Of a stretch of 49,688 bases of DNA, positions 26,741-46,433 are shown piece after piece. Location of the stretch: NCBI GenBank assembly GCA_913044215.1, contig CAJWOT010000002.1, positions 1 to 49,688 on the forward strand, written 5' to 3'. Source of the stretch: an uncultured Rhodospirillaceae bacterium. Lineage in GTDB: Bacteria > Pseudomonadota > Alphaproteobacteria > UBA8366 > GCA-2717185. Position 1 is the first letter of the stretch. Each line of letters opens with the position of its first letter. Below the pieces are notes generated by a model. The model saw only the letters and a program-made list of their open reading frames with translations. It did not search any database and was not told where the DNA came from. The position numbers and the translations under genes were made by a program.

Positions 26741-27526
26741 ATGCGTTACGCACGGTTCGAAAAGGACGGCACGATCGCTTGCGGCATTGTCGAGGGCGAT
26801 ATCATCAAGGTCATTGCAGGCGAAATCCTCGACGGCGGGGCACCGACCGGGGAAACCCATGCGCTGGACAGCGTCCAACTGCTGCCACCGATTATTCCGG
26901 AAACCTTTTATGCCGCCGGCTTGAACTATGTTGCCCACATTAAGGAACAGGCGGAGTCGCGGGGGGCGAAACCGAACATTCCGGAAAAACCGGACATCGG
27001 CTATCGCGCCAACAATGCGCTGATCGGCCATAACGAAACCATTGTCATTCCGAAAGACGCCACAGACTTGGTGGAATACGAAGCGGAGTTGGTGGTGGTG
27101 ATCGGCAAACAGGCGAAGTACCTGTCGGAAGCGAACGCGCTGTCCTGCGTCTTCGGCTACACCATCGGCAACGATGTCAGCGAGCGGACCTGGCAACGGG
27201 GCGACCGCACCTTTTGGCGCGGCAAGAACGCCGACACGTTCAAGCCGATGGGCCCCTGGATCGAAACCGACCTCGACCTGGACAGTCTCGAGACAACGGT
27301 GCGGCTGAATGGTGAAGAGACGATCCGGTTCGAGACCAACAACATGCTGTTCGGGGTCGAACGCTATATCAGCGCCATGTCGCAATATCTTACGCTCTAT
27401 CCCGGCGACGTGATCTGGATGGGCACCGAGGGCAAGTCGCCGCAGATGAAGCATGGCGACGTGTGCGAGATCGATATCACCGGCATCGGTACCCTGCGCA
27501 ATCCTGTCGTGCGAGAGGGCCACTAG
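26741..27526 (+). CDS. Fumarylacetoacetate hydrolase (FAH) family protein
   Basis: The FAH-fold core is NYVAHIKE..., EAELVVVIGK and GYTIGNDVSERTWQ. It is 261 aa and probably co-transcribed with the GST gene (14-nt gap). Confidence 0.85.
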   Translation: MRYARFEKDGTIACGIVEGDIIKVIAGEILDGGAPTGETHALDSVQLLPPIIPETFYAAGLNYVAHIKEQAESRGAKPNIPEKPDIGYRANNALIGHNETIVIPKDATDLVEYEAELVVVIGKQAKYLSEANALSCVFGYTIGNDVSERTWQRGDRTFWRGKNADTFKPMGPWIETDLDLDSLETTVRLNGEETIRFETNNMLFGVERYISAMSQYLTLYPGDVIWMGTEGKSPQMKHGDVCEIDITGIGTLRNPVVREGH

Positions 27527-27753
27527 GCAGCAAATTCTTCTGACTCCGGAGGAATCGCGGCCGCCGAATCGTCGGTCGGTTCGGGAGTCACCGTCAATAA
27601 GGCGACGCCGCCGGGCGCGTGAGCCTTGTACCACTGTCCCCGGGGCACGATCGCAATAATTCCGGCGTGCAATTCCAGAACGCGCTTCTCGCCCGCGGCA
27701 AGGATCGTCAGCCGCACGCTCCCTTCGAGCACCTGAACGAATTGATCGCCCAC
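27523..27753 (-). CDS. Cupin-domain fragment (76 aa, probably an N-terminally truncated remnant)
   Basis: GDQFVQVLEGSVRLTI...IVPRGQWYKAHAPGGVALLTVTP matches only the C-terminal two thirds of a small cupin. The start is GTG with no clear SD. Upstream in the same frame there is a TAG after 3 codons, and only 27 codons separate it from the GntR stop. Confidence 0.4.
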   Translation of the reverse strand: MGDQFVQVLEGSVRLTILAAGEKRVLELHAGIIAIVPRGQWYKAHAPGGVALLTVTPEPTDDSAAAIPPESEEFAA

Positions 27754-27834
27754 AAAACACTTCTACGGCAAACCGCCATTCGAGAATCGTTCGATACGAT
27801 CGTTCGAGCCTTTTCCCGACCCGGTCCGTCCTAA

Positions 27835-28512
27835 TTATCGCGGAGGCGTATCCAAGGTCGCGCGGGTAAAGGTTTCGATGTAATCGAGCAGCCGGTCGGA
27901 CGCCGCGCATGCGCGAATCCGGTCCCCATCGCCGATAGCCCGAGCTACTTCCGCGTGAAGCCGTGCGCAGAGGGGTAGGTCCGCCACCTCTTGATAGTGG
28001 ATGAACCAGAACCGCCGCGACAGGGGCTGCATCAATTGCATCGCCTTGGCCGCAAATCCGTTGCGCGCCGCATCCACCGAGAGATCGTTCAACTCCCGGT
28101 CCAGCCGCAGGAAGGATCGGTCGTCATCGGTTTCCGCGGCATGCGCCATTTCGCGAGCAATGCCTTGAAATCGCTCTCGTTCAGCCTCGGTCGCCCGCTC
28201 CGCGGCATTTCCCGCGATAAGCCGCTCGACCTCCCGGCGCACTTCCAGGAGCTGCAATTGCGCCCGGATATCGATTTCCGAAATCAAGATTCCCCGGCGC
28301 GGCAGAACCACAACCAACCCCGCATGCGCCAGACGTTGCAGCGCTTCGCGGATCGGCGTACGGCCGATGCCGACATGTTCGCTCAATTGCGCTTCCGAGA
28401 CGATGCTGCCGGGTTTGAGCCGCAGCATCACGATTTCCTCTTCGATCCGTTCATAGGCCAAATCGGTAAGCGAGGCATATACTTCGGTATCGTTGGCGGA
28501 GGCGATCGCCAT
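27835..28512 (-). CDS. GntR-family transcriptional regulator (FadR/FCD subfamily)
   Basis: The winged HTH is LKPGSIVSEAQLSEHVGIGRTPIREALQRLAHAGLVVVLPRRG, followed by an all-helical FCD-like C-terminal domain. The ATG is at 28510-28512. Confidence 0.88.
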   Translation of the reverse strand: MAIASANDTEVYASLTDLAYERIEEEIVMLRLKPGSIVSEAQLSEHVGIGRTPIREALQRLAHAGLVVVLPRRGILISEIDIRAQLQLLEVRREVERLIAGNAAERATEAERERFQGIAREMAHAAETDDDRSFLRLDRELNDLSVDAARNGFAAKAMQLMQPLSRRFWFIHYQEVADLPLCARLHAEVARAIGDGDRIRACAASDRLLDYIETFTRATLDTPPR

Positions 28513-28530
28513 GGGTGTGTCCTTGTCGCT

Positions 28531-28542
28531 CTGATATATCAG
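28531..28542. promoter_or_regulatory. Perfect 12-bp palindrome CTGATATATCAG, candidate GntR operator
   Basis: It is the only strong palindrome in the 106-bp divergent GntR/PhyH intergenic region. It lies 19 nt from the GntR start codon. Confidence 0.4.
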
Positions 28543-28618
28543 CAATATAGTTCAGGGATTATCGCCGCGAAAGCGCCGACAGGTTAAACGCCGACGTCAC
28601 GACCGAGGAACGACCATC

Positions 28619-29560
28619 ATGTATCCCGAACGCGTCCAGGACCATGCTCCGAAAATTCTGACCCAGATGCAACGGGACTTCTATTTCGAGAACGGCTATG
28701 TGATGCTCGAGTCCGTCGTGCCGATGGAAACCATCGAGCGGCTTCGCGCACTGACCGACGCGATGGTGGATCGCAGCCGATCGGTCGTCACATCCGACGC
28801 AATTTTCGATCTCGAGCCTGCCCACAACGCCGACACCCCACGCTTGCGCCGCCTGTCGTCGCCCGTCGCACAGGATCCGCTTTACTGGGAGTTCGCCTCT
28901 GAGTCGGTGATCGCCGACATCGCGGCCGATCTGGTCGGCCCGGACGTCAAATTCCATCACTCCAAGCTCAACTTCAAATGGGCCGAAGGGGGCGAGGAAG
29001 TGAAGTGGCATCAGGACATCCAGTCCTGGGCGCACACCAATTACAGCCCGCTGACCATCGGCACGTATCTGTACGATGTCGGCCCTGAGCAAGGACCGCT
29101 GGGCGTCATTCCCGGCAGTCACAAAGGCCCCCTGTTCAGCCAGTACAACGACAAGGACCAATGGACCGGCGATATTACCGACCGGGATTTGGAGACGGTG
29201 GCACTCGACACGGCGGAATATCTGATGGGACCGGCCGGATCGGTCACGGTGCACAATTGCTGCACCATCCATGGGTCGAAACCGAATCTGTCGGATCGGG
29301 GCCGGCCGTTGCTGCTCAACGTCTACTCGGCAGCCGACGCCTTCACCTACATGCCCAACCCCTTAAATACCGAGTTCGCCGGCGCCATCGTGCGCGGCAA
29401 CGCGGTCCGCGAAGCCTTCATCGACCCGCGTCCCTGCGTCATGTCGCCGGATTGGTCGAAAGGCTACACCTCGCTCTTCGCCTTGCAGCAAAAGGAAGAA
29501 TGGGGCGAGGATCAGATGGACCGGGTCGAACGGCAGCACCGCGAGACGGTCAGCGGCTGA
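28619..29560 (+). CDS. Phytanoyl-CoA dioxygenase (PhyH) family Fe(II)/2-oxoglutarate-dependent oxygenase
   Basis: FYFENGYVMLESVV is a PhyH-type N-terminus. The HxD facial-triad context is VKWHQDIQSW, and the distal His is in VHNCCTIHGSKPN. Confidence 0.8.
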   Translation: MYPERVQDHAPKILTQMQRDFYFENGYVMLESVVPMETIERLRALTDAMVDRSRSVVTSDAIFDLEPAHNADTPRLRRLSSPVAQDPLYWEFASESVIADIAADLVGPDVKFHHSKLNFKWAEGGEEVKWHQDIQSWAHTNYSPLTIGTYLYDVGPEQGPLGVIPGSHKGPLFSQYNDKDQWTGDITDRDLETVALDTAEYLMGPAGSVTVHNCCTIHGSKPNLSDRGRPLLLNVYSAADAFTYMPNPLNTEFAGAIVRGNAVREAFIDPRPCVMSPDWSKGYTSLFALQQKEEWGEDQMDRVERQHRETVSG

Positions 29561-29590
29561 CAGCCCTCACCGCGGCGACTGCCAATCTGG

Positions 29591-29779
29591 CTAGCCGCAG
29601 CGCCGACAGCGAACCTTCGCGAAGATTTCGTCCCAGTCGCCATCGGTTGCCGCGTAATCCAGCAGACAGCGCAAGGCTTTCGACTCATCCGGCAGCTTGT
29701 AGCGTTCGGCAATCGTCTTCAGCATCTCATGCGCATCCGGATGGACCTCGTAGCCCATCTTGACCTTTGCACCCGCCAT
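29591..29779 (-). CDS. Hypothetical 62-aa protein, last gene of the TRAP operon (possible ribbon-helix-helix-like fold, C-terminal CxxC)
   Basis: A strong SD (GGGAGG) lies 8 nt before the ATG at 29777-29779, and the gene starts 15 nt after the dctM stop. Third-codon positions are G/C-rich. The sequence is MAGAKVKMGYEVHPDAHEMLKTIAERYKLPDESKALRCLLDYAATDGDWDEIFAKVRCRRCG. I recognise no family. Confidence 0.55.
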   Translation of the reverse strand: MAGAKVKMGYEVHPDAHEMLKTIAERYKLPDESKALRCLLDYAATDGDWDEIFAKVRCRRCG

Positions 29780-29794
29780 GTGAGCCGCCTCCCG

Positions 29795-31138
29795 CTAAAA
29801 GCCCCGGAACAGAATCGTCGGCAACCAAAGTGCTAGATTCGGCATCGCCAGCACGAATGCCAAAACCACCATGTGCAAGAAGATAAACGGCACAACCCCT
29901 TTGTACATGTGCATCAGAGTGATCTCCGGTGGGCTGATACCGCGCAAGTAAAAGATAGCGGGCGCCATCGGCGGTGTCAGATAGCTTGTCTGGATCATGA
30001 TCAGGAAGCAAATAGAGAACCACACCTTCACAGAACCCGGATCCAGTTCGTAGAACGGGAAACCAACAATGATAGGCATAGCGATCGGTACGACGATTAG
30101 CATCAATGAGATCAGGTCCAACACGAAACCAGCAGCGAACGCCAACAATAGTAAAATCGCCAAGGTTTCCCAGTTGTTCAGCTGAGCCGCCTGCATCAGT
30201 TGTTGAACGCCAATCAACCCACCGGCAGCGGTAAATACACCCGCAAACATTGTGCCGCCGATCAGGATCAACAGGATCATTGCCGTAATTACGACAGTTT
30301 TATAAAGCGCTTCCTTCATGACCGCCACGGTAAGTGTGCGGTAGCACAAGCACATAATGACTGATCCCACAGCACCGCATCCAGCGGCTTCAGTCGGGGT
30401 CGCAAGGCCTCCTAAGATAGAGCCCAGGACCGTTGCGATCAGTAACGCCGGTGGGATAAGGGCGGTCGCCGTCATAGTCAGCTTCCGCATGAAGGGCGGA
30501 TCGTTTTCGTCTGCGGTTACGCGCGGGCCGTCTTCGGGCCGGATTATGCAGCGACAAATGATATAGATGATATAGCTGCCCGCAAGCATCAGGCCTGGCA
30601 GGATCATACCGGCGAACAGATCGCCGATTGACACGTCCGCGACGGGACCGAGAATGACCACGACAACCGACGGCGGGATAATGGTACCCAACGATCCACC
30701 GGCGCAGATCGTGCCGGAAATCAGCGACTTGTTGTAGGCGTATCGCATCATCACCGGAATCGCGAGTAGCCCAACGACAGTTTCGGTTGCGCCTACGATA
30801 CCCGTGGATGCAGCGAACACGACACATAGCAAAACCGTGCCAACGGCCAAGCCGCCGGGCAATCGTCTCGTCCACATATGTATCGCTTCAAATAATCGTT
30901 CAGCAACACCCGAACGCTCAAGCAACGATCCCATAAATATGAATAACGGAACAGCGCCTAGCACGTAATTTGAAGCGACATCGTCTACTTTCGCTAAGTA
31001 AAGTGCAACTGCGGCTTCATTGAAGCGAATAACCCCCCAAACAAGTGCAACACCCATCAGGGAAAACGCCACAGGAAATCCCATAAACAAGCAAAATAGC
31101 AGCGCCGGGAACATCCATAACGCAAATTCGACACTCAT
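29795..31138 (-). CDS. TRAP transporter large permease subunit (DctM family)
   Basis: MSVEFALWMFPALLFCLFMGFPVAFSLMG... is about 447 aa and polytopic. The ATG at 31136-31138 overlaps the dctQ stop by 1 nt (TAATG). Confidence 0.9.
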   Translation of the reverse strand: MSVEFALWMFPALLFCLFMGFPVAFSLMGVALVWGVIRFNEAAVALYLAKVDDVASNYVLGAVPLFIFMGSLLERSGVAERLFEAIHMWTRRLPGGLAVGTVLLCVVFAASTGIVGATETVVGLLAIPVMMRYAYNKSLISGTICAGGSLGTIIPPSVVVVILGPVADVSIGDLFAGMILPGLMLAGSYIIYIICRCIIRPEDGPRVTADENDPPFMRKLTMTATALIPPALLIATVLGSILGGLATPTEAAGCGAVGSVIMCLCYRTLTVAVMKEALYKTVVITAMILLILIGGTMFAGVFTAAGGLIGVQQLMQAAQLNNWETLAILLLLAFAAGFVLDLISLMLIVVPIAMPIIVGFPFYELDPGSVKVWFSICFLIMIQTSYLTPPMAPAIFYLRGISPPEITLMHMYKGVVPFIFLHMVVLAFVLAMPNLALWLPTILFRGF

Positions 31139-31839
31139 TATTCGAAGCCTCCCGGCAGATCTGGTTCTGGTACAACACGGCCCATGAGGACCAGAATGCA
31201 CTTCAAAGCTTCAACAACCACTTGAAGGGTGAACAAATAGAAACCGAAGGTGAACGTAAATTTAAACGGCCATATCAACGGGTTCCAGGCCGATTCCCCA
31301 GATTGCTCGTTAAATTTATAGGCCTCGATAAAATATTCAAAAAGGCCCCACGAAACCCAAATAATCATTGGTAATAGTAGGAAAATATACCCTGTCAGAT
31401 CGATTAACGCCTTCTGCTTCTCAGAAACACTATCGAAAAAGAAATCCACCCGGATGTGGCGGCGGAGCTGCGTGCAATAGGCAATCCCAAGCATAAGACT
31501 GGTGCCCATCATCATGTAAGATACTTCAAATGCCCAGAAGGTCGGCGCTCGGAATGCGTATCGCATAATAACTTCGTAGACGATTAGCATTGCAAGAAAT
31601 GGAATTATACAGCCAGCAATAATTCCAAAAACTTTCACCATCTTTTCGATTGGTCGAACGAAATTAAATACATCACGCCCGATAAACGCATGTGCTAAGC
31701 CCCACAAGGCATAAAGAGCCGTAATGTAGAAAATTCCGACTAATACTCCGAGAAACCAGCCGTGTCCCTTTGGTTCACCCGAAAGGATCAACGAATGCGT
31801 TTCCGACCATACGCTAAGTACCGCGTCCATTACCCACAT
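31138..31839 (-). CDS. TRAP transporter small permease subunit (DctQ family, long form)
   Basis: It has four or more hydrophobic spans and lies between the DctP and DctM genes. The start could be 31839 or the ATG at 31830. Confidence 0.8.
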   Translation of the reverse strand: MWVMDAVLSVWSETHSLILSGEPKGHGWFLGVLVGIFYITALYALWGLAHAFIGRDVFNFVRPIEKMVKVFGIIAGCIIPFLAMLIVYEVIMRYAFRAPTFWAFEVSYMMMGTSLMLGIAYCTQLRRHIRVDFFFDSVSEKQKALIDLTGYIFLLLPMIIWVSWGLFEYFIEAYKFNEQSGESAWNPLIWPFKFTFTFGFYLFTLQVVVEALKCILVLMGRVVPEPDLPGGFE

Positions 31840-31917
31840 CCAATTTAGAATTACATAAACGGAATAAAGGGGGAGCGCTCTTCACGCTCCCCCTAAATTG
31901 TTCTTCTAATAATCGGT

Positions 31918-32994
31918 TTACTTAAGTATGTCGCCGATTGCCGTGCGCGTACCCGGACCTGAACGCATCTTCGAATATACGCTCATGTCATGCTGGAACT
32001 TACGCTGGTGGTTCAATGCCTTCTTGAACCATGCATTGCCCTCGATCTGCTTGTCCGCCCACTCGTTGCCGGCCTTCTGAGCGGCATCGATGAAGGATTG
32101 CTCCAAGCGAAGCATAGTATTGCCACCCTTCGCCATACGACGATACGCGAACAGATCGTTATAGGCGTGATTACGCCATGCACGGAATGTCCGCAGTTCA
32201 CCCGCCAGTTCGATTAAATGCTGGTCGCGTTTAGAAATTTTATCCCAAGCTTTTTTGTTGAATTCACACTCTTGTGTGGCACCCGGTTGATGCACGCCCG
32301 GGAAAATAATGTATTTCGCAATTTTGTGGAAACCTACCGGCTCATTCACCGAAGGCGAACTCCACTCCGTGGCGTCGATAACACCGCGTTCCAGCGCCGG
32401 ATAGACTTCCGCACCTGGCAGAATAACCGTTGTGGCTCCAAGGGAACCACCTACCTCTGCCCAAGCACCAGCCGTCCGCTGTTTAAGGCCTTTGTACTCG
32501 GCGAGATTGGTAACCTTGCGTTTAGAGTGCAGAAATATTTCTGCTGGGAAGGTACCACATGGAATCGACACAACACCGAACTTTTCCATCCGATATTGTT
32601 TCCACAGGTCAACGCCGCCAGCTTGATATAGCCACAAGAAAAACTCTTCTTCCGTCAAGCCGCCAACATAGCCACCGAAGATAACAGTCGTCTTATCGAT
32701 CCCCCAGTCGTAGCCCATCCAATTATGGCCAGCCTGGCCTACACCGGATTTAACAGAATCCGTAACCTTAAGAGCCTTACCCAGCGTGCCTGCCGGGAAA
32801 ACCGTAATGTTAACTCGACCCTCCGTCAGGTCTTTCACGACTGCTGCAAAAGATTTTGCGTCTTCAAGAGGCTTACCGCCGCCCCAAGGTGTCGCCATGC
32901 TCCAGTTGGCTTGTGCGAGAGCCGAGCCGGCCATCGCCATCATGCCCAGACCGGCGGCCGCGCCGACCGCCGTTTTGATGACATTTTTTAACAT
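31918..32994 (-). CDS. TRAP transporter substrate-binding protein (DctP family)
   Basis: The signal peptide is MLKNVIKTAVGAAAGLGMMAMAGSALA, followed by NWSMATPWGGG.... GGGAGGA lies upstream of the ATG at 32992-32994. Confidence 0.85.
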   Translation of the reverse strand: MLKNVIKTAVGAAAGLGMMAMAGSALAQANWSMATPWGGGKPLEDAKSFAAVVKDLTEGRVNITVFPAGTLGKALKVTDSVKSGVGQAGHNWMGYDWGIDKTTVIFGGYVGGLTEEEFFLWLYQAGGVDLWKQYRMEKFGVVSIPCGTFPAEIFLHSKRKVTNLAEYKGLKQRTAGAWAEVGGSLGATTVILPGAEVYPALERGVIDATEWSSPSVNEPVGFHKIAKYIIFPGVHQPGATQECEFNKKAWDKISKRDQHLIELAGELRTFRAWRNHAYNDLFAYRRMAKGGNTMLRLEQSFIDAAQKAGNEWADKQIEGNAWFKKALNHQRKFQHDMSVYSKMRSGPGTRTAIGDILK

Positions 32995-33433
32995 TTGGTC
33001 CTCCCTGTTATGGACTGGTTTGAGACTAAAGGTAGATTCTGCTGCCTCCACCTCATTCAGGAAATCACTTGCAGGCCCACCTCAATCCCTGGCCGCGAGT
33101 GTTCACCATTGCTGAAAATTGGTCAACCTTGTCGCGCTCTTCCCAATGCCAGCCCATTTCTTATTCCAAAATTCGGGGCCGCCCGGTGCGCGACGCACTC
33201 TCCCCTGTGATTATTTGCCCGTACAATACAAGTGACATATGAGAACGACAAGACGTTAGCACGAAACCATTTTTATCAGTCTGAAACCCTGCCTGCGCCC
33301 CGCAATCGCAAATTTGTTACAGCTCGGCGCGACAGTGTTTAAAGTCTGTTCACCAGCTACGGCCCTACGCGCCATATGGAGAACGGCCGGAACGGTGCCC
33401 AGAAAAGGCGACGTTCAACCCCGAGGAGGCGAT

Positions 33434-34540
33434 ATGAACGACAAGGCGAACACCGCCAGCGACATCCGGATGAAAGGCAGCGGTTACTATTCGCTCGCCA
33501 CGACCGGCGCGAAGATCGTCATCGACAGCGCCATGCCCCTGATCCGCGGCGCCCTGGACAGGATGGATATCCGAGATGACGGCTCCGTCTTCGCGATGGC
33601 CGATATGGGATGCGCCGACGGCGGCACCTCGATCGATATGGTTGGCCAAGCCTTGCGGTACGTGCGTGAGAAGGCACCGTCCCGACCTCTGACCATGACC
33701 TATACCGACCTGCCGCGGAACGATTTCAGTCAGGTCTTTCACAATGTCCACGGCCTGACCGACCTGCCAGGCTACGCGCCGGATATCGACAATCTCTACG
33801 TCTTCGCGTCCGGCACCTCGTTCCATCAGCGCATCTTCCCGGACAATGCGCTTAATTTTGGCTTCTCCGCGACCGCCTCGCATTACATCAGCGAACGCCC
33901 CGGCCCGATCACAAATCACGTCCATATGGTCGGTGCCGAGGGGGCGGAGCTGGCCGCTTATACGGAACAGGGCCGCGCCGACTGGGAGCGCATTCTCGGG
34001 TGCCGCGCAGCGGAGCTGGTGCCCGGCGGGGGGTTGGTCTTGCTCAATTTCTGCCGCGACGAGAAAGGCCGCTATCTCGGCGGTACCGAGGGCGTGAACA
34101 TGTTCCACACCTTCGATCGTCTGTGGCGGGAGATGGCCGAGGACGGCGCGATTACCATGGCAGAATATGAAGCCACGGTCTTCCCGCAATATTACCGCGA
34201 CATCGATGAATGCAGCGCACCGCTGACCGATCCCAACTGCCCCGTGCACAAAGCCGGCCTTCGCCTAGATCACATCGAAACCAAGGTGATCGATTGTCCC
34301 TACCGGCTCGACTACGAGCAGCACGGCGACGCGGCCAAATTCGCCCGGGACTATATCCCGACCCTGCGCTCCTGGAGCGAAAGCGTCTTCTTCGCCGGCT
34401 TGTCAGAAGACCGGCCGCTGGAAGAACGCGCCGAACTTATCGATCACTATTTTGATTCCTACGGGACCTTCGTGCGCGAGAACCCGACCGGCCAAGGCAT
34501 GGACTATGTCCACACCTACATGGTCATGCACAAGGAGTAA
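33434..34540 (+). CDS. SABATH-type (Methyltransf_7-like) SAM-dependent carboxyl methyltransferase homologue
   Basis: Collinear matches to plant SAMT/JMT motifs run over the full length:
- RMKGSGYYS (plant HMKGGxGxxSY)
- ADMGCADGGTS (ADLGCSSGPN)
- TDLPRNDFSQVF (NDLPGNDFNxxF)
- SGTSFHQRIFPDNALNFGFSATASHYIS (GSFYGRLFPxxSLHFxxSSYSLHWLS)
- AAELVPGGGLVLL (EEVVPGGRMVLT)
- FPQYY (IPQYTP)
GAGGAGG lies upstream of the ATG at 33434. Confidence 0.8.
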   Translation: MNDKANTASDIRMKGSGYYSLATTGAKIVIDSAMPLIRGALDRMDIRDDGSVFAMADMGCADGGTSIDMVGQALRYVREKAPSRPLTMTYTDLPRNDFSQVFHNVHGLTDLPGYAPDIDNLYVFASGTSFHQRIFPDNALNFGFSATASHYISERPGPITNHVHMVGAEGAELAAYTEQGRADWERILGCRAAELVPGGGLVLLNFCRDEKGRYLGGTEGVNMFHTFDRLWREMAEDGAITMAEYEATVFPQYYRDIDECSAPLTDPNCPVHKAGLRLDHIETKVIDCPYRLDYEQHGDAAKFARDYIPTLRSWSESVFFAGLSEDRPLEERAELIDHYFDSYGTFVRENPTGQGMDYVHTYMVMHKE

Positions 34541-34554
34541 CCGCGCGGCCCCGC

Positions 34555-35415
34555 TCAGCCCGCGGCTATCTTCTCCGCCACGCGCACGGTGCGATACATC
34601 GTACGCAATACGGGCTTTTCGATCAGTTTGTTGTCGAGCACCACAAGACCGCTGTCGCCTTCCTCGAAGGCGGCGATAACCCGGCGTGCGTGGGCAACGG
34701 CCTCTTCAGATGGGCTGAAGATCGCGTTCAACGGTGCGATCTGCTTGGGATGGATAGACCCCTTGCCGGTGAAGCCGAGCTCCTCAGCAAGTTGTGCCTC
34801 GCGTTCCATCCCTTCCATATCGTCGAGATCGAGATAAGGCACATCGATCACATCGAGGCCCGCGCCGGCGGCGGCATGAACGACACGCGAGCGGGCATAA
34901 AGCAACGTCTCCCACCTGTTCGCCGCGCGCAACTCCGCCGCCATATCAACGCCACCGAAGAACATCGCATCGATCCGGCCACTCGATTGGGCGATGTCGT
35001 AGGCGGCTTCAAGGCCCGCATTGGTCTCGATGATAACGTGCAGGCGGGTCAGCATATCGTGCTCGGTCAGCAGTTCGTCCAGTGCCTTCACCTCATCCGG
35101 TGACACGACCTTGGGCAGCATCAGCGCCGGCGGCGCTGTCACGGCGGACACTGCCGCCTGCACGTCGGCCATTCCGTCGGCCGTGCGCAGGCAGTTGATG
35201 CGGACGATCCGTTCGACGCCGTCTTTCGCCTGCGGCGTCTCGAACAGCTTCATCGTGCGCTCGCGGGCGTCCTGCTTATGGTTCGGCGCGATCGCATCCT
35301 CAAGATCGATGCAGACAATATCCGCGCCCGTTGCCAACGCCTTGGGAAACATGTCCGGACTGACGCCGGGCATGAATATAAAGCTGCGGCGCGGCTGAAA
35401 CTCTTCGTTGTCCAT
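34555..35415 (-). CDS. HpcH/HpaI aldolase / citrate lyase beta (CitE)-like acyl-CoA lyase
   Basis: RRSFIFMPGVSPDMFPKALATGADIVCIDLEDAIAP is a CitE/malyl-CoA lyase-type N-terminus. The protein is 286 aa. Confidence 0.8.
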   Translation of the reverse strand: MDNEEFQPRRSFIFMPGVSPDMFPKALATGADIVCIDLEDAIAPNHKQDARERTMKLFETPQAKDGVERIVRINCLRTADGMADVQAAVSAVTAPPALMLPKVVSPDEVKALDELLTEHDMLTRLHVIIETNAGLEAAYDIAQSSGRIDAMFFGGVDMAAELRAANRWETLLYARSRVVHAAAGAGLDVIDVPYLDLDDMEGMEREAQLAEELGFTGKGSIHPKQIAPLNAIFSPSEEAVAHARRVIAAFEEGDSGLVVLDNKLIEKPVLRTMYRTVRVAEKIAAG

Positions 35416-35418
35416 GCT

Positions 35419-36618
35419 CTACAATCCGAGAACGGCTTTGGCGATGACGTTGCGTTGGATCTCGTTCGACCCGCCATAGATCGATGCGGCGCGCCGCAGC
35501 AGCCGCTCGCTCATCAATCCGACGCTGTGGTCCGGGCCGACCGGCGGTTCGTTCGCGTCGGGCCGCACCATGCTGGCATCGTAGGGCAGCGCGTAGAAAC
35601 CCATCGCTTCGACGAGCAATTCGTTAAGCTCTTGTTCGATGGTTGTCCCGCTGATCTTGAGGGTCGACGATTCCGGCCCCGGATTTCCGCCGCCGGCAAG
35701 CGCCGACATCATCCGCAAATTGGTGATCTCCAGCGCGGAGAGCGAGACCTCGACTTTCGAAATACGCGACTTGAACCCATGATCGTCGAGCAACGAACCG
35801 CCCTCGGCACGCTCGATCTCGGCGATCTGTTTCAGCTTCTTCACCTTCTGCTTCGACTTGCCGACCCCGGCGATCCCGGTCCGCTCGTGACCCAGCAGGA
35901 ACTTGGCGTAGGTCCAGCCTTTGTTTTCTTCGCCAATGCGGTTCTCTACCGGCACCCGCACATCGTCGAAGAAAACTTCGTTCAAGTAATGACCGCCATC
36001 CATTGAGATAATCGGCTTCACCGTCAGACCCTTGGTCTTCATATCGATCAAGAGGAAGGTGATGCCTTCCTGCTTCTTGACGTCAGGGTCGGTCCGGGTG
36101 AGGCAGAAGATCAAATCCGCCTTATGCGCCTGCGAGGTCCAGATCTTCTGGCCGTTGACGACATACTCGTCACCATCCAGTACCGCGCGGGTTTGCAGCG
36201 AGGCCAGATCCGAGCCCGAGCCCGGCTCCGAATAGCCTTGGCACCACAACTCGTCGCCGGAAAGAATGCTCGGCAGATAGCGGTCTTTCTGCGCCTGAGT
36301 GCCGAAAGTGTAAATAACCGGCCCGACCATGGTAATCCCGAATCCGCTGATCCGCGGCGCATCATTGGCGCTGTATTCCTCTTCGAAGATATGACGCTGG
36401 GTTACAGACCAACCGGTGCCGCCATACTCCACCGGCCAGGCCGGCGCGATCCAGCCACGCTTGTACAGCGCCTTGTGCCAGGCAACCATGTCGGACTTGG
36501 AGACGTAGGACGGCGTCCGCCGCACGACCTCGCGCACCGTTTCCGGCAGGTTTTCCTTGAAGAAAGCACGCACCTCCTCGCGGAACGCCAAATCTTCGTG
36601 GCTGAACAACATGTCCAT
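35419..36618 (-). CDS. Acyl-CoA dehydrogenase family protein (PimC/FadE-like large-subunit type)
   Basis: WCQGYSEPGSGSDLASLQTRA, NGQKIWTSQAHKADLIF and ISMDGGHYLNEVFFDDVRVP are present. The protein is 399 aa. The gene lies 3 nt upstream of the CitE-like gene. Confidence 0.85.
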   Translation of the reverse strand: MDMLFSHEDLAFREEVRAFFKENLPETVREVVRRTPSYVSKSDMVAWHKALYKRGWIAPAWPVEYGGTGWSVTQRHIFEEEYSANDAPRISGFGITMVGPVIYTFGTQAQKDRYLPSILSGDELWCQGYSEPGSGSDLASLQTRAVLDGDEYVVNGQKIWTSQAHKADLIFCLTRTDPDVKKQEGITFLLIDMKTKGLTVKPIISMDGGHYLNEVFFDDVRVPVENRIGEENKGWTYAKFLLGHERTGIAGVGKSKQKVKKLKQIAEIERAEGGSLLDDHGFKSRISKVEVSLSALEITNLRMMSALAGGGNPGPESSTLKISGTTIEQELNELLVEAMGFYALPYDASMVRPDANEPPVGPDHSVGLMSERLLRRAASIYGGSNEIQRNVIAKAVLGL

Positions 36619-36663
36619 GGGATCGTCTCCTTCGAACTCGGTCTATTCGTAAATTAGCAGCCG

Positions 36664-37617
36664 TTACTCGGCGGCATAGGCAAGAATCGGCTGACCAAGT
36701 AACGAGCTGGATTCCCGACCGTCAACACCCACCGGCACGTCACCCACCAAGGTGACGCGATAAAGCTGGCGGTCCGCATCAATCTGAAAGATATCGGATG
36801 GCGCCAGATGGCAGGTCGAGCGATTGTCCCAAAAGGCGATATCACCGGCCTTCCAGCGGAACCGCACCGTATAATCCTGACGCACCGCGTGTTCCCACAA
36901 CAACTCCAGCAGTTGCTCGCTCTCGCGCGGCGCCAGCCCGACGACCTCTTTCAAAAAGGACGGGCTAACATAAAGGGCCCGTTCGCCGGTTTCCGGATGC
37001 ACACGGACCAGCGGATGTTCGCTCTCCTGTCCCCGGGTGCGCAGCATCTCCTTATAATCTTCGGAGGATTCCGCCCCCTGCGGCGGCGCGAATTTGTGCA
37101 CGCCGCGTAGCGTGTCGACGAACCCCCGCAGCGTGTCCGACAGACCGTTATAGGCCGCAACCAAATTGGTGAATTGGGTATCGCCGCCATAGGGTGGGAT
37201 GTTCACACCGCGCAGAATCGATGCCGCCGGCGGGTTGATCGCCGCCGTGATGTCAGCGTGCCAGCCGGTCCAGGGTTTCTCCATCTTCGCGCCGGTCTTG
37301 TAGCGATTCGCCTTGCGGTGCTTGGCGATGGAGTAAATCTCCGGATAGTCCTCTACATTGCCAAACACGGCATGCCCGATCGTCAGTTCACCGAACTGTC
37401 TTGCGAAATCCAGGTGCTGATCGTGATCGAGATGCTGATCGTGGAAGAAAATCACCTTCCATTTCAGCAGAGCGGCACGAATCTCCTTCACCGCCTCGCT
37501 GGACAGCGGTTTTGTCAGATCGACACCACCGATTTCCGCACCGATATTAATCGTGACCGGATTGATTTCGATTTCCTTCGGTGCATCGGCCAATTCGAAT
37601 GCTGCCACGTTGCTCAT
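36664..37617 (-). CDS. TauD/TfdA-family Fe(II)/2-oxoglutarate dioxygenase, paralogue 1
   Basis: The HxD motif is in WTGWHADIT, and the distal His is in DNRSTCHLAP. The start is the ATG at 37615-37617 (MSNVAAFELAD...). The upstream part of the 410-aa track ORF is read-through into paralogue 2 in another frame. Confidence 0.85.
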   Translation of the reverse strand: MSNVAAFELADAPKEIEINPVTINIGAEIGGVDLTKPLSSEAVKEIRAALLKWKVIFFHDQHLDHDQHLDFARQFGELTIGHAVFGNVEDYPEIYSIAKHRKANRYKTGAKMEKPWTGWHADITAAINPPAASILRGVNIPPYGGDTQFTNLVAAYNGLSDTLRGFVDTLRGVHKFAPPQGAESSEDYKEMLRTRGQESEHPLVRVHPETGERALYVSPSFLKEVVGLAPRESEQLLELLWEHAVRQDYTVRFRWKAGDIAFWDNRSTCHLAPSDIFQIDADRQLYRVTLVGDVPVGVDGRESSSLLGQPILAYAAE

Positions 37618-37633
37618 ATCGTCTGTCCTCCTT

Positions 37634-38551
37634 CTATTCCGCCGCCCAGGCGGTAATCGGGTCGCCCTCGATCGCCTTTGAAGGCGTGCCATCGACCCCG
37701 ACCGGCACGTCGCCAACCAAGGTGATACGGTAGAGCTGCCGCTCGCCTTCGACTTCAAATATATCGGTAGGCGCGTGATGGCATGCCGCCCGATTGTCCC
37801 AGACAGCGATATCGCCATCGCGCCAGCGGAAGCGCACCGTGTATTCCTGGCGTACGGCATGCTCCCACAACATTTCCATGAAATACTGGCTTTCACGCGG
37901 CGTCATGCCAACGATTTCCTTGAGATAGGACGGGCTGACATAGAGCGCCCGCTCGCCGGTCTCCGGATGCACCCGGACGATTGGGTGTTCGCTGACCAGT
38001 TTGCGGCGCTTGAAATAATCTTCATAGGCTTTCGTGCCGGGCTCCACCGCAGGCGCCGCCGTGTAATGAAGCCCGCGCAATGTATCGACGAAGGCGCGCA
38101 GCGTTTCCGACAATCCATCGTAAGCTGCCGCCAGATTGGTCCATTGCGTGTCGCCGCCATAGGGCGGCAGGGTCACCCCTCGCAGGATCGATATGGCCGG
38201 CGGGTTGATCGCCGAAGTGATGTCGGCGTGCCAGCCCGTCCAGGGCGCGACCATCTTCGGAGCACCGAACTGGTTTGCCGCGCGTTTCTTGGCGATCGAA
38301 TAGATTTCCGGATAGCCGTCGATATGGCCGAACACCGCGTGACCGATGGTCGGCTCGCCCAGCTGTTTGGCGAAGGCGAGGTGGCTGTCGTGGTCGATGT
38401 CCTGATCGTGGAAGAAAATGACCTTCCATTTCAGCAACGCCGCGCGAATTTCCTTGACGGTATCCGCCGACAGCGGCTGGGACAGATCGACGCCACCGAT
38501 TTCCGCGCCGATATGAATGCTGAGGGGGTTAACGTCGATGCTCGACGCCAT
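37634..38551 (-). CDS. TauD/TfdA-family Fe(II)/2-oxoglutarate dioxygenase, paralogue 2
   Basis: It has the same motifs (WTGWHADIT, DNRAACHHAP). A hand-aligned N-terminal block has 51 of 64 residues identical to paralogue 1. The 3' end is 16 nt from the paralogue 1 start. Confidence 0.88.
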   Translation of the reverse strand: MASSIDVNPLSIHIGAEIGGVDLSQPLSADTVKEIRAALLKWKVIFFHDQDIDHDSHLAFAKQLGEPTIGHAVFGHIDGYPEIYSIAKKRAANQFGAPKMVAPWTGWHADITSAINPPAISILRGVTLPPYGGDTQWTNLAAAYDGLSETLRAFVDTLRGLHYTAAPAVEPGTKAYEDYFKRRKLVSEHPIVRVHPETGERALYVSPSYLKEIVGMTPRESQYFMEMLWEHAVRQEYTVRFRWRDGDIAVWDNRAACHHAPTDIFEVEGERQLYRITLVGDVPVGVDGTPSKAIEGDPITAWAAE

Positions 38552-38662
38552 GGGTCTTACTCCTGAAACTTACTGAGACCATGAGAACCTTTAGCGCAAT
38601 GCTAGTGCGAACAGCCGTGCTTCACAATTGTTGCGGCTAAAAAGTCGCAGCAAAGCAACAAA

Positions 38663-40036
38663 CTAGCCCTCGATCCATGCGTCCAGCGCGTCGTCATCCT
38701 CGCCCGGCACATGCACGACCGTGAAGGTAAAGGGGTCGCCGCCGAGAGGTTTCGTCGCGTCGAGACCCATCTTATCGACCCGCCCATCCGTCCCCGACGG
38801 GTCGAGACGGGACCCCTGTGCGCCGGCGACAACCATCAAATCTTCCGCCGCCTGAAACCGGGTCGCAACGGCCCATTCGACCGCATCCGGATTGAGGATA
38901 TCAACATCCTCGTCGACAATGGTGACCTGCTTGATATCGGCGTGTCCGGCGAAAGCGCCCATCATGATGTTCTTCGGCTCGCCGTCCCATCGTTTGGCAA
39001 TCTTGACGACCAGATGATAGCGGCAGACCCCGCCACGCGAGAGATGAACATCTTTGACGCTCGGAAATGTCCGCTGCAGATGGGCGATGAGTGACGCCTC
39101 TCGCGGGATACCGCCGAGCAGCAGATGTTCCATCGCCGCCGGCACGATGGTGTGGAACAGGGCGTCCTCGCGCCGTGTGATCGCGTCGATCACGATGACC
39201 TGACGCTTGCCCACCGGTCCATAATATTGCGGGAATTCGCCGAACGGCCCTTCCTCCTCGCGCACTTCCGGCAGCAATCGGCCTTCGATGACGATCTCCG
39301 CCTCGGCCGGCACGCGCACATCGTTCGTCTTGCATTTTACGACCGGCAAGGGCCCGCCATGCAGGGCACCGGCGACTTCCAATTCGTCCCGGTCTATTGG
39401 CAGGATCGCCTGCGAGGCGAGCAGCGTCAGCGGGTCGACGCCGACCGCGATAGCGACCGACAGCGGTTCGGCCGCTTCCTCTGCGGCATCGTAGAACCGA
39501 TGCAAATCTCGCGGCAGTATCAAGATACCAAGCCGGTCAGGCCCGTTGATCTGTATCCGGTTGATCGAGACGTTCTGCACGCCGGTTTTTGGATTGGCCG
39601 CGATCACCAGCCCCGCCGTGATATAGGCACCGGAATCATGTTCGTTATGCACCGGGATCGGCAGTTCATCTCGAATATCAAAACCACTTTCGATGACGAC
39701 CTGCTGCACAGGCGCGGATTCAGATGCGACTTCGGACCAGGGCAGCGGGTGCAGCACGGCATTGCGATAGCGGTCGAGCATATCGCTTTCATCCACCCCC
39801 ATCGCTTCCGCGATCCACGGCCGGGACGCGACCAAACCCGAAATCACCGACAATTCATGACCGCCCGGCGCGGGAAACAATGTCGCCTTCTCGCCGTCCA
39901 GACGTTTGGCGATCGCCGCCAAGGTGAATTCCAGCGGTACATACGGTTTGGTCCGAACCAACCGGCCAGTCTCGTCCAACCGGTCGAGCCATGACCGCAA
40001 GGTCGTGAAGGGGGCATTCGGTCGCGCAGTTGTCAT
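38663..40036 (-). CDS. UbiD-family (prFMN-dependent) decarboxylase
   Basis: Full-length UbiD architecture is present: LRSWLDRLDETGRLVRTK, NVSINRIQ, EGPFGEFPQYYG, RYHLVVKI, and MGLDATKP near the C-terminus. The protein is 457 aa. Confidence 0.88.
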   Translation of the reverse strand: MTTARPNAPFTTLRSWLDRLDETGRLVRTKPYVPLEFTLAAIAKRLDGEKATLFPAPGGHELSVISGLVASRPWIAEAMGVDESDMLDRYRNAVLHPLPWSEVASESAPVQQVVIESGFDIRDELPIPVHNEHDSGAYITAGLVIAANPKTGVQNVSINRIQINGPDRLGILILPRDLHRFYDAAEEAAEPLSVAIAVGVDPLTLLASQAILPIDRDELEVAGALHGGPLPVVKCKTNDVRVPAEAEIVIEGRLLPEVREEEGPFGEFPQYYGPVGKRQVIVIDAITRREDALFHTIVPAAMEHLLLGGIPREASLIAHLQRTFPSVKDVHLSRGGVCRYHLVVKIAKRWDGEPKNIMMGAFAGHADIKQVTIVDEDVDILNPDAVEWAVATRFQAAEDLMVVAGAQGSRLDPSGTDGRVDKMGLDATKPLGGDPFTFTVVHVPGEDDDALDAWIEG

Positions 40037-40818
40037 GCCTGGTCCGCCTTTCTCGTCTCGATTTCCGCTGGCACGTGCCAGGCGAGCGTCTCAGCGAATG
40101 CGGCCACCGCGCCGACGACGAACAAGGTCGGTGCCGACAGTTCGGCTTTTGCGATCTCGCCGGGCAATCTTGCCAAGGTCGCACTGATCACCTTCTGCGT
40201 CGGCAATGTGCCATTCTGGATTGCGGCTGCCGGCGTATCCTCCGGCAAGCCCGCTTGGATCAGGTTGTTGCAGATCCGATCGATCTTCATCAGCCCCATA
40301 TAGATGACCAGGGTCGTATCCGGGTCAGCGAGCCGGTTCCAGTCCAATTCCAGTTCGCCATTGTCCGCCATGTGGCCGGTGACGAAATGCACGCCCTTCG
40401 CAAGCCCGCGATGGGTGAGCGGGATACCGGCATAGGCAGCGCAGCCCATTGACGCGGTGATCCCCGGTACGATCTCGAATGGAATCCCATGTTGCGCCAG
40501 GTGCAATGCCTCTTCACTGCCGCGTCCGAATATGAAGGGGTCCCCGCCCTTCAGCCGCACCACGCGCCGGCCGCTGCGTGCCTGGGTCACCAAGACGCCG
40601 TTGATCGTTTCCTGCGGCATGTAATGCTTGCGCGACGCCTTGCCCGCGAAAATCCGCTCCGCATCTACCGGCACCAAGGCGAGGACGCTTTCCGAAACAA
40701 GCCGGTCATAGACCACGATCTCGGCTCCCTGCAGTACGCGCAAGGCCCGCACGGTCAGCAGATCCGGATCGCCCGGCCCCGCACCGACGAGAAAGACCCG
40801 TGGTTCGCTAGCGTTCAT
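40033..40818 (-). CDS. cobA: Uroporphyrinogen-III C-methyltransferase (SUMT)
   Basis: VFLVGAGPGDPDLLTVRALRVLQGAEIVVYDRLV and VVRLKGGDPFIFGRGSEE are present. The start is the ATG at 40816-40818. Its TGA overlaps the UbiD ATG (ATGA at 40033-40036). Confidence 0.88.
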   Translation of the reverse strand: MNASEPRVFLVGAGPGDPDLLTVRALRVLQGAEIVVYDRLVSESVLALVPVDAERIFAGKASRKHYMPQETINGVLVTQARSGRRVVRLKGGDPFIFGRGSEEALHLAQHGIPFEIVPGITASMGCAAYAGIPLTHRGLAKGVHFVTGHMADNGELELDWNRLADPDTTLVIYMGLMKIDRICNNLIQAGLPEDTPAAAIQNGTLPTQKVISATLARLPGEIAKAELSAPTLFVVGAVAAFAETLAWHVPAEIETRKADQA

Positions 40819-40917: not shown

Positions 40918-41013
40918 CCCCACCCACCCCCATCAAGAGGGAGAGAAAATTTATGGCGAAAAATCTTCCTTTGTCCCTTCCCCCTCGAGGGGGGAAGGCT
41001 AGGATGGAGGTGG
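40918..41013. repeat. G/C-tract intergenic palindromic element (REP-like), copy A
   Basis: CCCCACCCACCCCC...AAGAGGGAGAG... is followed by an imperfect hairpin, CCCTTCCCCC-TCGA-GGGGGGAAGG, at about 40975-40999, then GGATGGAGGTGG. The ORFs crossing it (40820-41026, 40902-41279) look like repeat translations. Confidence 0.5.
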
Positions 41014-43525: not shown

Positions 43526-43606
43526 ATGAATTCGGCCACTTTGTGACTCCAAGGGCTCGTCTGCTAGGCTCGCCGCCAGCCATCATCCCGGACAGTGGAG
43601 ACAATC

Positions 43607-44536
43607 ATGAATGTGGGATTCATCGGCCTCGGCACCATGGGGGCCAGCATCGCGTTAAACGCGATCAAGGGCGGGCATTCGCTAACCGTGCACGACATTA
43701 ACAAGGAGGCAGCGGCCGAACATCTGAAGCTGGGCGCGGCCTGGGCCGACACGCCGAAAGCGGTCGCCGAGGCGAGCGACGTCGTTTTCACCTCGTTGCC
43801 GGGGCCGCCCGAAGTGCAAGCGGTCGTGTTGGGTGAGAATGGGCTGATCGAAGGCTTCAAGCCCGGCAGCGCCTATTTTGACCTCAGCACCAACTCGCCA
43901 ACAGTGATCCGCGACATCCATGCGGCGCTGGCCGAGAAAGACGTGCAGACGCTCGACGCACCGGTCAGCGGCGGCCCGGACGGCGCCCGCGACGGGCGGA
44001 TGGCGATTTGGATCGGCGGCGACGAAGACGCTTACAACAAGTACCTGCCGGTGCTGAACAGCATGGGCGACGCCCCCTACTATGTCGGCCCGATCGGCGC
44101 CGGTGCGGTGGCCAAGCTGGTGCACAATTGCAGCGGCTACATCCTGCAGACGGCGCTGGCCGAAACCTTCACCATGGGCGTGAAGGCCGGTGTCAATCCG
44201 GAAGGGCTGTGGCAGGCGCTGCGCAAGGGCGCGCTGGGCCGACGCCGGGTGTTCGACACGTTGGGACGCCAGTTCCTGCCGGGTCGTTTCGACCCACCCG
44301 ATTTCGCCCTCAAGCTCGCTCGCAAGGATGTGGCGCTGGCCTGCGAGGTCGGCCGTGAATTCGACGTGCCGATGCGCCTGGCGCACCTCACCTTGATGGA
44401 AATGACCGAAGCGTTGAACCGCGGCTGGGAAGGCCGCGATTCCCGCGTCGCCATGACCCTGCAAACGGAACGTGCCGGCGTCGATGTGCGCGTCTCCGAC
44501 AACCGGATCGCCGAGATCCTCGCGGAGGACTCATGA
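43607..44536 (+). CDS. NAD(P)-dependent beta-hydroxyacid dehydrogenase (3-hydroxyisobutyrate dehydrogenase family)
   Basis: The Rossmann motif is MNVGFIGLGTMGASIA. DAPVSGG and the GAGAVAKLVHN segment are typical of the HIBADH/6PGDH-like family. Confidence 0.85.
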   Translation: MNVGFIGLGTMGASIALNAIKGGHSLTVHDINKEAAAEHLKLGAAWADTPKAVAEASDVVFTSLPGPPEVQAVVLGENGLIEGFKPGSAYFDLSTNSPTVIRDIHAALAEKDVQTLDAPVSGGPDGARDGRMAIWIGGDEDAYNKYLPVLNSMGDAPYYVGPIGAGAVAKLVHNCSGYILQTALAETFTMGVKAGVNPEGLWQALRKGALGRRRVFDTLGRQFLPGRFDPPDFALKLARKDVALACEVGREFDVPMRLAHLTLMEMTEALNRGWEGRDSRVAMTLQTERAGVDVRVSDNRIAEILAEDS

Positions 44537-45279: not shown

Positions 45280-45281
45280 CC

Positions 45282-46352: not shown

Positions 46353-46433
46353 CGGGCCTCCGAGAGGCTTGTGGGCGCGGTACAAGGACGCCTATTTTCA
46401 ACAAAAGCTATCGCGACCGAAGGAAGATTCGAC

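Follow-up and report, generated by a model that had tools for sequence, protein, structure and literature searches.

The 13-kb stretch of 13 genes analyzed here, from an uncultured bacterium of a marine Rhodospirillaceae lineage represented by metagenome-assembled genomes (MAGs) only, is best explained, with middling confidence on our part, as a mosaic, specific to its lineage, in which three functional modules are juxtaposed between housekeeping genes, and not as one pathway. It lies within the 49,688 nucleotides (positions 1 to 49,688 of contig CAJWOT010000002.1, GenBank assembly GCA_913044215.1; G+C content, ~61%) that we refer to at full length as the window. Module 1 (27835-34540) comprises a GntR/FCD regulator gene divergent from a gene for a PhyH-family Fe(II)/2-oxoglutarate dioxygenase and an uptake operon, dctPQM-orf62, for a tripartite ATP-independent periplasmic (TRAP) transporter, divergent from a gene for a SABATH-like Methyltransf_7 methyltransferase (MT7). 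Module 2 (38663-40818) couples cobA, encoding uroporphyrinogen-III C-methyltransferase (SUMT), to a UbiD-family decarboxylase of the HmfF type, which would depend on prenylated flavin mononucleotide (prFMN). Module 3 (34555-38551) consists of two tandem TauD/TfdA-family dioxygenases, an acyl-CoA dehydrogenase (ACAD), and a CitE-like lyase. An earlier note on this DNA had proposed that all 13 genes form a single system carrying out import, multiple hydroxylation, methylation, decarboxylation, and CoA steps on one carboxylic acid. This claimed new 13-gene pathway fails to hold up, and the useful outcome is narrower. The gene families, their arrangement, the modular distribution, and the recombination tract are direct findings; the substrates of all modules, and any flux between them, we infer.

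A scan anchored on MT7 was carried out with one genome per species, which yielded 80 loci with at most 10 kb of sequence to either side of MT7, and every protein of the window was searched against these loci. Genomes with an MT7 at least 81% identical to that of the window were taken as the clade (L007-L011 and L017 and, later, L101-L104). The complete arrangement was found in clade genomes only. In the 73 nonclade species, genes for the CitE-like lyase, ACAD, UbiD, and SUMT were never found within 10 kb of MT7, and none had an ortholog of TauD1 or TauD2 nearby; the sole TauD-family match near a nonclade MT7, in L014, was 29-30% identical and ~10 kb away and is not an ortholog. No GntR/FCD ortholog was found near MT7 outside the clade, this gene being confined to the close clade. 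The co-occurrence in other genomes that the earlier note had named as a check was thus largely missing. Even inside the clade, the locus is plastic: L008 and L009 contain a third TauD, L009, L010, and L017 contain a second PhyH, and L009 contains a family-III CoA-transferase between UbiD and TauD1.

The one module that recurs outside the clade is PhyH-MT7, with TRAP. A PhyH ortholog (45-52% identical) was found directly upstream of MT7 and on the same strand in 11 nonclade loci and within 3.4 kb of MT7 in two others (13 of the 73 in total). L020 contains a TRAP transporter 77-81% identical to that of the window and linked with MT7 and PhyH, and L031 contains one of the same similarity linked with MT7 and a more distant PhyH paralog; the L031 TRAP is also lower in G+C content than its neighboring genes. 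More distant TRAP transporters were found near MT7 in five additional loci, and the TRAP-MT7 linkage occurs in three different architectures. It is possible, with a modest probability, that the locus is a pure coincidence, in which MT7, PhyH, TRAP, UbiD, and TauD/ACAD/CitE all have substrates of their own and PhyH and MT7 are mere neighbors. Each gene has 60-75% identical orthologs in many taxa and in varied contexts, MT7 was seen in at least five types of neighborhood, and the TRAP cassette was swapped independently of the neighboring genes, all of which would fit such a coincidence. However, that PhyH immediately precedes MT7 in 11 independent genomes and that TRAP accompanies MT7 in three architectures goes beyond chance adjacency, and the spacing within the TauD1-TauD2-ACAD-CitE run argues against it as well.

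The genes of the locus are arranged in at least four units and not in one codirectional array. Two genes, PhyH and MT7, are encoded on the plus strand, each divergent from a minus-strand unit (GntR and dctPQM-orf62, respectively), and MT7 is convergent with the minus-strand run of SUMT-UbiD and TauD1-TauD2-ACAD-CitE. SUMT overlaps the start of UbiD by 4 bp, and UbiD is separated from TauD1 by 111 bp, with a weak terminator-like hairpin just past the UbiD stop codon. The gaps downstream are 16 bp (TauD1-TauD2), 45 bp (TauD2-ACAD), and 3 bp (ACAD-CitE), and such gaps of 3-45 bp indicate that these four genes are probably cotranscribed. A shared GntR-type operator was sought in five intergenic regions, and only chance-level 8- to 9-mers were found, which by itself provides no evidence either way on a common regulon. 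A scan for promoters and terminators gave counts not above those of shuffled controls, and the predicted sites serve as weak hints only. A near-perfect palindrome (CTTCCCCCTCGAGGGGGGAAG) was observed at 40977-40998, in the intergenic region between SUMT and a divergent gene of the short-chain dehydrogenase/reductase (SDR) family.

That all 13 genes act together on one carboxylic acid appears unlikely. In its favor, at least six clade genomes retain the gene order through indels and gains of paralogs, L009 contains the missing CoA-transferase within the minus-strand run, the UbiD and the partners of MT7 elsewhere hint independently at furan or pyridine acid chemistry, and an HpcH/CitE-like gene was found beside both a UbiD ortholog (L089) and a TauD ortholog (L094). 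Conservation within the clade is nevertheless uninformative on function, since the housekeeping flanks are kept in the same order across the clade and the synteny thus reaches unrelated genes equally. In every genome outside the clade, the modules come apart, and UbiD (six orthologs) and TauD (four orthologs) occur there in other contexts. Moreover, the genes are divided among at least four directions or units of transcription, no operator motif was seen to be common to the four promoter regions, and no role can be conceived for SUMT in a pathway of this kind.

MT7 (33434-34540, plus strand; 368 aa) represents a large, well-conserved, uncharacterized bacterial branch of the plant-type SABATH enzymes, found mostly in marine Proteobacteria. 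More than 1,900 homologs were found in Alpha- and Gammaproteobacteria, typically 368 aa long and ~60% identical. The match to PF03492 is full length (123 bits versus a cutoff of 29.8; profile positions 9-334 of 335), and the closest solved structure is the fatty-acid O-methyltransferase (FAMT) of Mycobacterium marinum (5F2K), followed by plant SAMT, IAMT, LAMT, and xanthine N-methyltransferases; the similarity is distant (E of ~1e-21 with the single sequence and 7e-36 with a profile). The motifs of the S-adenosylmethionine (SAM) site, namely, the Asp of the DxGCxxG loop, the Asp of DLPxNDF, and a Ser-Phe pair, are all present, and D57, D92-L-P-R-N-D-F, and S129-F130 are invariant in 22 homologs and align with the motifs of IAMT and FAMT. 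MT7 differs from the characterized enzymes in its catabolic genomic context and at Gln25 and Trp151 (SAMT numbering), which we take to be the carboxylate clamp: the clamp Trp (S-L-H-W motif) aligns with the invariant Tyr151 (S-H-Y) of MT7, and the position of the clamp Gln is variable, being Ile in the MT7 of the window and Asp in the consensus. Membership in the SABATH family stands, but the deduction from it of a substrate with a free carboxylate is weakened by the loss of the clamp, and carboxyl O-methylation by MT7 is a candidate activity only. The SABATH family also includes N-methyltransferases that act on pyridine and purine substrates, and N-methylation by MT7 would be as plausible as O-methylation. 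A literature search on bacterial SABATH enzymes, Methyltransf_7, DUF3726, and picolinate N-methyltransferase returned nothing relevant.

The idea that SABATH and 2-oxoglutarate oxygenases here tune plant or algal hormone acids of the salicylate, jasmonate, auxin, or gibberellin type is highly improbable, since it draws on family resemblance, together with the name "indole-3-acetate O-methyltransferase" that one source gives to some homologs, whereas no plant enzyme is as close to MT7 as the bacterial fatty-acid O-methyltransferase, MT7 lacks the Gln/Trp clamp of plant SAMT and IAMT, its partners in other genomes are catabolic genes of the homarine and furoyl-CoA types and not hormone pathways, and the nearest relatives of DctP bind small keto and hydroxy acids.

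We examined the neighbors of MT7 by clustering and Pfam scans. The commonest were c1, DUF3726, the M19 "membrane dipeptidase," Ldh_2, a family-III CoA-transferase, and MttB; c1 is a protein of ~560 aa without a Pfam family, encoded directly downstream of MT7 with overlapping gene ends. A search of plasmid proteins with c1 led to pPGA2_239 of Phaeobacter inhibens, on which genes for a LysR regulator, an aldehyde dehydrogenase, a membrane dipeptidase, a BCCT transporter, a hypothetical protein of 563 aa, DUF3726, and Ldh follow one another. This order (R-D-C-T-B-A) is a gene-for-gene mirror of the published catabolic operon homABCDER for homarine (N-methylpicolinate), in which the order is homE-A-B-T-C-D-R (Ferrer-Gonzalez et al. 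2026, PMC13236597). With the Phaeobacter proteins as queries, HomB-like genes were found in 29 MT7 loci (28 nonclade loci and L009), Ldh in 23, HomC-like genes in 17, and HomA-like genes in at least 15, all within 10 kb of MT7, whereas neither HomD nor BCCT was found in any of the 29 HomB-linked loci. In most of these, MT7 directly adjoins the HomB-like gene, and in L009, a close relative of the window, the HomB-like gene lies just upstream of MT7. The MT7-linked clusters thus differ from the published operon in lacking homD and BCCT, and sometimes contain TRAP instead; the window has no hom gene at all, and no match to the HomA-D, BCCT, or Ldh proteins of P. inhibens was found in it. About two thirds of hom operons reportedly contain homE, and a methyltransferase goes unmentioned in the paper describing them (PMC13236597). 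We rejected MT7 as a candidate for homE because it is far too rare, with only 2 plasmid records compared to 168 for HomB-like proteins.

In a second type of neighborhood ("type B"; L020, L031, L032, L037, and, in part, L040), the order is MT7-homB-homA-PhyH-PhyH-...-TRAP, and this run directly follows five genes whose products are 41-59% identical to those of hmfABCDE, in the same order, with Dinoroseobacter shibae pDSHI01 and Cupriavidus pinatubonensis as the references. The hmfABCDE genes encode the route from furoyl-CoA to 2-oxoglutarate (PMC8091172), as part of the hydroxymethylfurfural (HMF)/furoate pathway (HmfF, HmfG, and hmfABCDE; Cupriavidus basilensis HMF14). The MT7 branch is thus embedded in variants of the homarine operon and lies beside furoyl-CoA-type clusters, and since MT7 is translationally coupled elsewhere to homB/homA-like genes for pyridine ring opening or follows hmfABCDE-like genes, its likeliest class of substrate would be a heteroaromatic (pyridine- or furan-type) carboxylate. 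The methyltransferase may activate or disguise such an acid. The link to MT7 extends the gene set for homarine, an abundant ocean metabolite.

In a further conserved MT7 context, "type A" (L014, L015, L018, L021, L026, L030, L039, L045, and L054), which contains no hom genes, hydantoinase/oxoprolinase A and B genes are divergent from a run that typically consists of SDR, Glyoxalase_3, PhyH, and MT7; a gene of the endonuclease/exonuclease/phosphatase family comes next in L014, L015, L018, and L021, and in L014 and L015 genes for subunits of an XDH-family molybdenum hydroxylase follow as well. In L050, a contig labeled Leptospira interrogans LS0056 (NODE_5), the order is TRAP-M19-Ldh_2-MT7-homB-homA, with an MT7 58-59% identical; this cluster, typical of marine Proteobacteria, reflects either horizontal transfer or contamination of the assembly.

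The UbiD-family gene (38663-40036, minus strand; UbiD N, core, and C domains) is predicted to encode a decarboxylase of the HmfF type, i.e., of the furandicarboxylate clade. Its product matched HmfF of P. thermopropionicum (PtHmfF; 6H6V) at 452 bits, in a gap-free alignment of 441 aa with 49% identity, versus 219 bits for the next-best match, AnInD, and shares 54% identity with the UbiD encoded in the hmf cluster of D. shibae. An active-site His of HmfF (H296/H297) sets the furan-type specificity (PMC7976604), and His296 of PtHmfF is conserved as His304 in the UbiD of the window. A role as the ubiquinone-pathway UbiD was rejected (163 bits versus a cutoff of 788). The window differs from the HMF/furoate pathway in that it lacks hmfG/UbiX, hmfABCDE, and hmfH and in that its UbiD is coupled to SUMT; a tblastn search with D. 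shibae UbiX and with HmfA-E-like proteins found nothing in the window. UbiX is expected elsewhere in the genome of a ubiquinone-producing proteobacterium, in which case its lack in the window, which had been pointed out in the earlier note and which we confirmed for all 49.7 kb, would be a minor gap. SUMT (40033-40818, minus strand; TP_methylase) exceeded the cutoffs of TIGR01469 (310 versus 185 bits) and NF004790 (312 versus 198 bits), and it adjoins UbiD in the clade only.

The neighborhoods of a small sample of six UbiD orthologs (59-76% identical) were examined, and none contained TauD, ACAD, MT7, SUMT, hmfG, or hmfABCDE. Three of the six are at a syntenic housekeeping site by an orphan DctP and aroQ-accBC, and one (L089) has upstream an HpcH gene whose product is 36% identical to the CitE-like protein of the window. 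Many marine Rhodospirillales carry the HmfF-type UbiD as a stand-alone gene, and its natural substrate may therefore differ from furandicarboxylic acid (FDCA), an industrial compound. At the housekeeping site, found in three other lineages (L087, L100, and the contig of P0159), UbiD (66-76% identical) lies beside a 358-aa DctP and aroQ-accB-accC-aat, and at two of these sites a small cupin of the CDO_I type is encoded directly downstream of UbiD. The L088 ortholog, in another context, has a DMSP_lyase-type cupin in the same downstream position.

The genes of module 3 are all on the minus strand. TauD1 (37634-38551; Pfam TauD, 205 bits) and TauD2 (36664-37617; 211 bits) are 68% identical to each other. 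The best PDB matches of TauD1 were the uncharacterized 5HSX/5KEU (447 bits), followed by AtsK and Rv3406 at ~200 bits. The two proteins thus share a Pfam family with the sulfonate and sulfate-ester dioxygenases TauD, AtsK, and Rv3406, but the score against the TauD equivalog NF007104 (204 bits) fell below its cutoff of 313, and no sulfonate transporter and no ssu or tau genes are adjacent. In a small sample of four TauD orthologs (64-69% identical), two were again in tandem pairs, one (L094) was followed by an HpcH gene, and none of the four had ACAD or UbiD nearby. The ACAD (35419-36618), with three ACAD domains, resembles the alpha subunits PimC and FadE26. Its best PDB matches, FadE26 (4X28) and Tcur3483, are both subunits of heteromeric enzymes, and it differs from the pimeloyl-CoA dehydrogenase PimCD in scoring below the cutoff for the large subunit (pimC_large, 484 versus 624 bits) and in lacking an adjacent PimD: no second ACAD gene was found in the locus and no partner subunit in the window. 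The CitE/HpcH-family protein (34555-35415; Pfam HpcH_HpaI, 139 bits) is RipC/CLYBL-like, with 246 bits against RipC_Ccl, below the cutoff of 375, and with Yersinia pestis 3QLL as the best PDB match, followed by CLYBL and malyl-CoA lyase. None of the catabolic proteins of the locus reached a function-level (equivalog) NCBIfam assignment.

Among known CoA routes for C5 dicarboxylates, module 3 recalls the itaconate pathway (RipABC/Ict-Ich-Ccl) and the Mcd/Mcl steps of the ethylmalonyl-CoA pathway, in that its CitE-like protein is nearest RipC/CLYBL, with ACAD 3 bp upstream, and in that the relative L009 contains a family-III CoA-transferase. It differs in having two TauD dioxygenases, a partnerless ACAD, and neither a hydratase nor a CoA-transferase. 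The lack of a CoA ligase or transferase, noted earlier as a missing activation step, is a true gap that extends over the whole window and that L009 fills with its enzyme between UbiD and TauD1. The module would carry out a CoA-dependent oxidative cleavage of an aliphatic or side-chain acid, for which a CoA-transferase is present in the relative L009.

The TRAP operon is encoded on the minus strand by dctM (29795-31138; Pfam DctM, 222 bits; TIGR00786, 273 bits versus a cutoff of 268), dctQ (31138-31830; Pfam DctQ, 81 bits), and dctP (31918-32994; Pfam DctP, 109 bits), together with orf62. The best solved relatives of DctP were 5CM6, the ketoacid-binding protein 7UG8, 2HZK, and the lactate binder TTHA0766, all at 130-140 bits, and the Arg of its "GLKQR" motif, a candidate for the carboxylate-binding residue, aligns with that of "GLKMR" in 5CM6 and 7UG8. 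The transporter resembles the TakP type for 2-oxo and hydroxy monocarboxylates (TakP 2HZK, TTHA0766, and 7UG8) in that DctP, DctQ, and DctM are encoded together in a single operon and DctP is most similar to this clade, although the similarity is limited to 130-140 bits and the cassette of the window is linked to MT7 and PhyH. The organic-acid theme of the earlier note is reasonable in this respect, DctP being nearest to binders of 2-oxo acids and lactate and UbiD being a predicted heteroaromatic-acid decarboxylase. PhyH (28619-29560, plus strand; Pfam PhyH, 101 bits) has ectoine hydroxylases as its nearest solved relatives, at 64 bits only, and the GntR/FCD regulator is encoded at 27835-28512 on the minus strand (Pfam GntR, 58 bits; FCD, 67 bits; 225 aa in the public call). 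A role in ectoine metabolism (PhyH as EctD; TRAP as UehABC/TeaABC) was rejected, since PhyH scored 57 bits against an EctD cutoff of 336 and DctP is far from UehA/TeaA (3FXB; E = 3e-6).

Deviant G+C content in part of the locus had been noticed earlier; it is real and limited to 29795-33433, that is, to dctPQM and the dctP-MT7 spacer. The third-codon-position G+C content (GC3) of this tract is 0.50-0.62 (dctM, 0.62; dctQ, 0.50), compared to 0.69-0.79 in the other genes of the locus, including a native value of 0.75 in orf62. Between the window and its sister genome L007, nucleotide identity is 77-83% in the tract and 95-98% in every other gene. Because the TRAP operon occupies the same position in all clade genomes, the low-G+C tract represents an allelic replacement and not an insertion. 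Of the alleles found, the nearest is that of L103, a relative with 51% G+C, with 92% nucleotide identity in dctQ and 95% in dctP versus 80-87% in the flanks. The swap of the TRAP cassette is a small, well-documented case of recombination between close relatives at an uptake locus. The 87-bp dctP-dctQ spacer contains a perfect G+C-rich hairpin (31868-31894; AGGGGGAGCG...CGCTCCCCCT) with a stem of 10 bp, 8 of them GC pairs, which could stabilize the mRNA or act as an attenuator and in this way set how much binding protein is made relative to permease. The small protein orf62 (29591-29779, minus strand; 62 aa; no Pfam family) is 91-100% identical in all clade genomes, compared to only 63-75% for the neighboring DctQ, and is absent outside the clade. 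Its C terminus is CRRCG, and its N-terminal half looks ribbon-helix-helix-like by eye.

Taken together, the hom- and hmf-like partners of MT7 elsewhere and the HmfF-type UbiD here are suggestive of heteroaromatic carboxylates as the substrates of modules 1 and 2. In the three-module mosaic, the TRAP transporter would import a small anionic organic acid, PhyH would hydroxylate this acid or a derivative, and MT7 would methylate it, and, in module 2, UbiD would strip one carboxyl group from a heteroaromatic dicarboxylate with prFMN from a UbiX encoded elsewhere. A more specific proposal, that MT7 is an N-methyltransferase for pyridine-2-carboxylates, converting picolinate to homarine or a close analog, is a long shot. 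On this route, an anionic heteroaromatic acid would enter via TRAP and not via BCCT, the carrier for the betaine homarine; the HmfF-like UbiD would first trim dicarboxylates (dipicolinate or furan/pyridine-dicarboxylate); and MT7 would N-methylate the acid to a pyridinium, which would let HomAB-type enzymes open the ring. The lineage of the window would retain the uptake, tailoring, and decarboxylation half.

Several points weigh against the mosaic of three modules with a heteroaromatic theme. The window contains no hom genes and no genes of the hmf lower pathway, which makes the theme guilt by association from other genomes, and the equation of c1, DUF3726, and M19 with HomB, HomA, and HomC is by gene order and annotation and not by alignment to the published sequences. 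In 11 type A loci, MT7-PhyH is paired with hydantoinase, SDR, and glyoxalase genes and not with hom genes, and the substrate of MT7 may therefore be of a more general kind. The neighborhoods of UbiD and TauD are small samples. Modules 1 and 2 could be cooperating, given the HmfF-type UbiD and the hmfABCDE-like neighbors of MT7 elsewhere. Likewise, the 111-bp gap and the weak terminator fall short of proving that UbiD and TauD are transcribed separately, and in L009 the CoA-transferase and TauD genes follow UbiD without interruption; modules 2 and 3 may thus form a single operon.

The 13 genes were verified at their junctions by open reading frame listing and translation and by GC3 scoring, and this map agrees with public gene calls for identical contigs from TARA/ENA. 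The Pfam matches of the locus proteins all exceed the gathering scores, and every family assignment of the earlier note was upheld by Pfam. Its picture of an accessory-looking locus between ordinary flanks was also borne out: the left flank contains the housekeeping genes ileS, mutL, argD, argF, hsp33, and bolA, plus genes for GST and FAH, and the right flank contains SDR, GIY-YIG, arfB, and carbonic anhydrase genes. No remnants of the second PhyH, HomB-like, or CoA-transferase genes of relatives were found in the window, and the 308 bp between FAH and GntR do not represent a decayed PhyH. Megablast of the 13-kb locus against plasmids returned only short single-gene matches, which led to UbiD homologs of Azospirillum and Paraburkholderia. 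A metagenome scan anchored on the flanking FAH, seeking an outgroup free of the island, returned only clade members and distant FAH paralogs.

Further genes of the flanks were observed. On the plus strand of the right flank, 43595-49202 contains additional catabolic-type genes, namely, one for an NAD_binding_2 dehydrogenase, one for an SDR, one for a monooxygenase resembling the FMO/Baeyer-Villiger type (46371-47963), and one for the alpha subunit of a Rieske ring-hydroxylating enzyme (48003-49202), and the accessory region may therefore reach beyond the 27523-40818 delimited earlier. On the left, the FAH-family gene (Rv2993c-like; 26741-27526, plus strand) has 62-66% identical homologs on many soil and other metagenome contigs (loci L109-L178), and these are usually directly preceded by a gene for a distant TauD-family protein (23-35% identical to TauD1/2), which suggests that the "ordinary" left flank may relate to dioxygenases after all. 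Farther to the left (8266-11613, minus strand), the window encodes a single-chain acyl-CoA carboxylase of 1115 aa in which biotin carboxylase, BCCP, and carboxyltransferase domains are fused.

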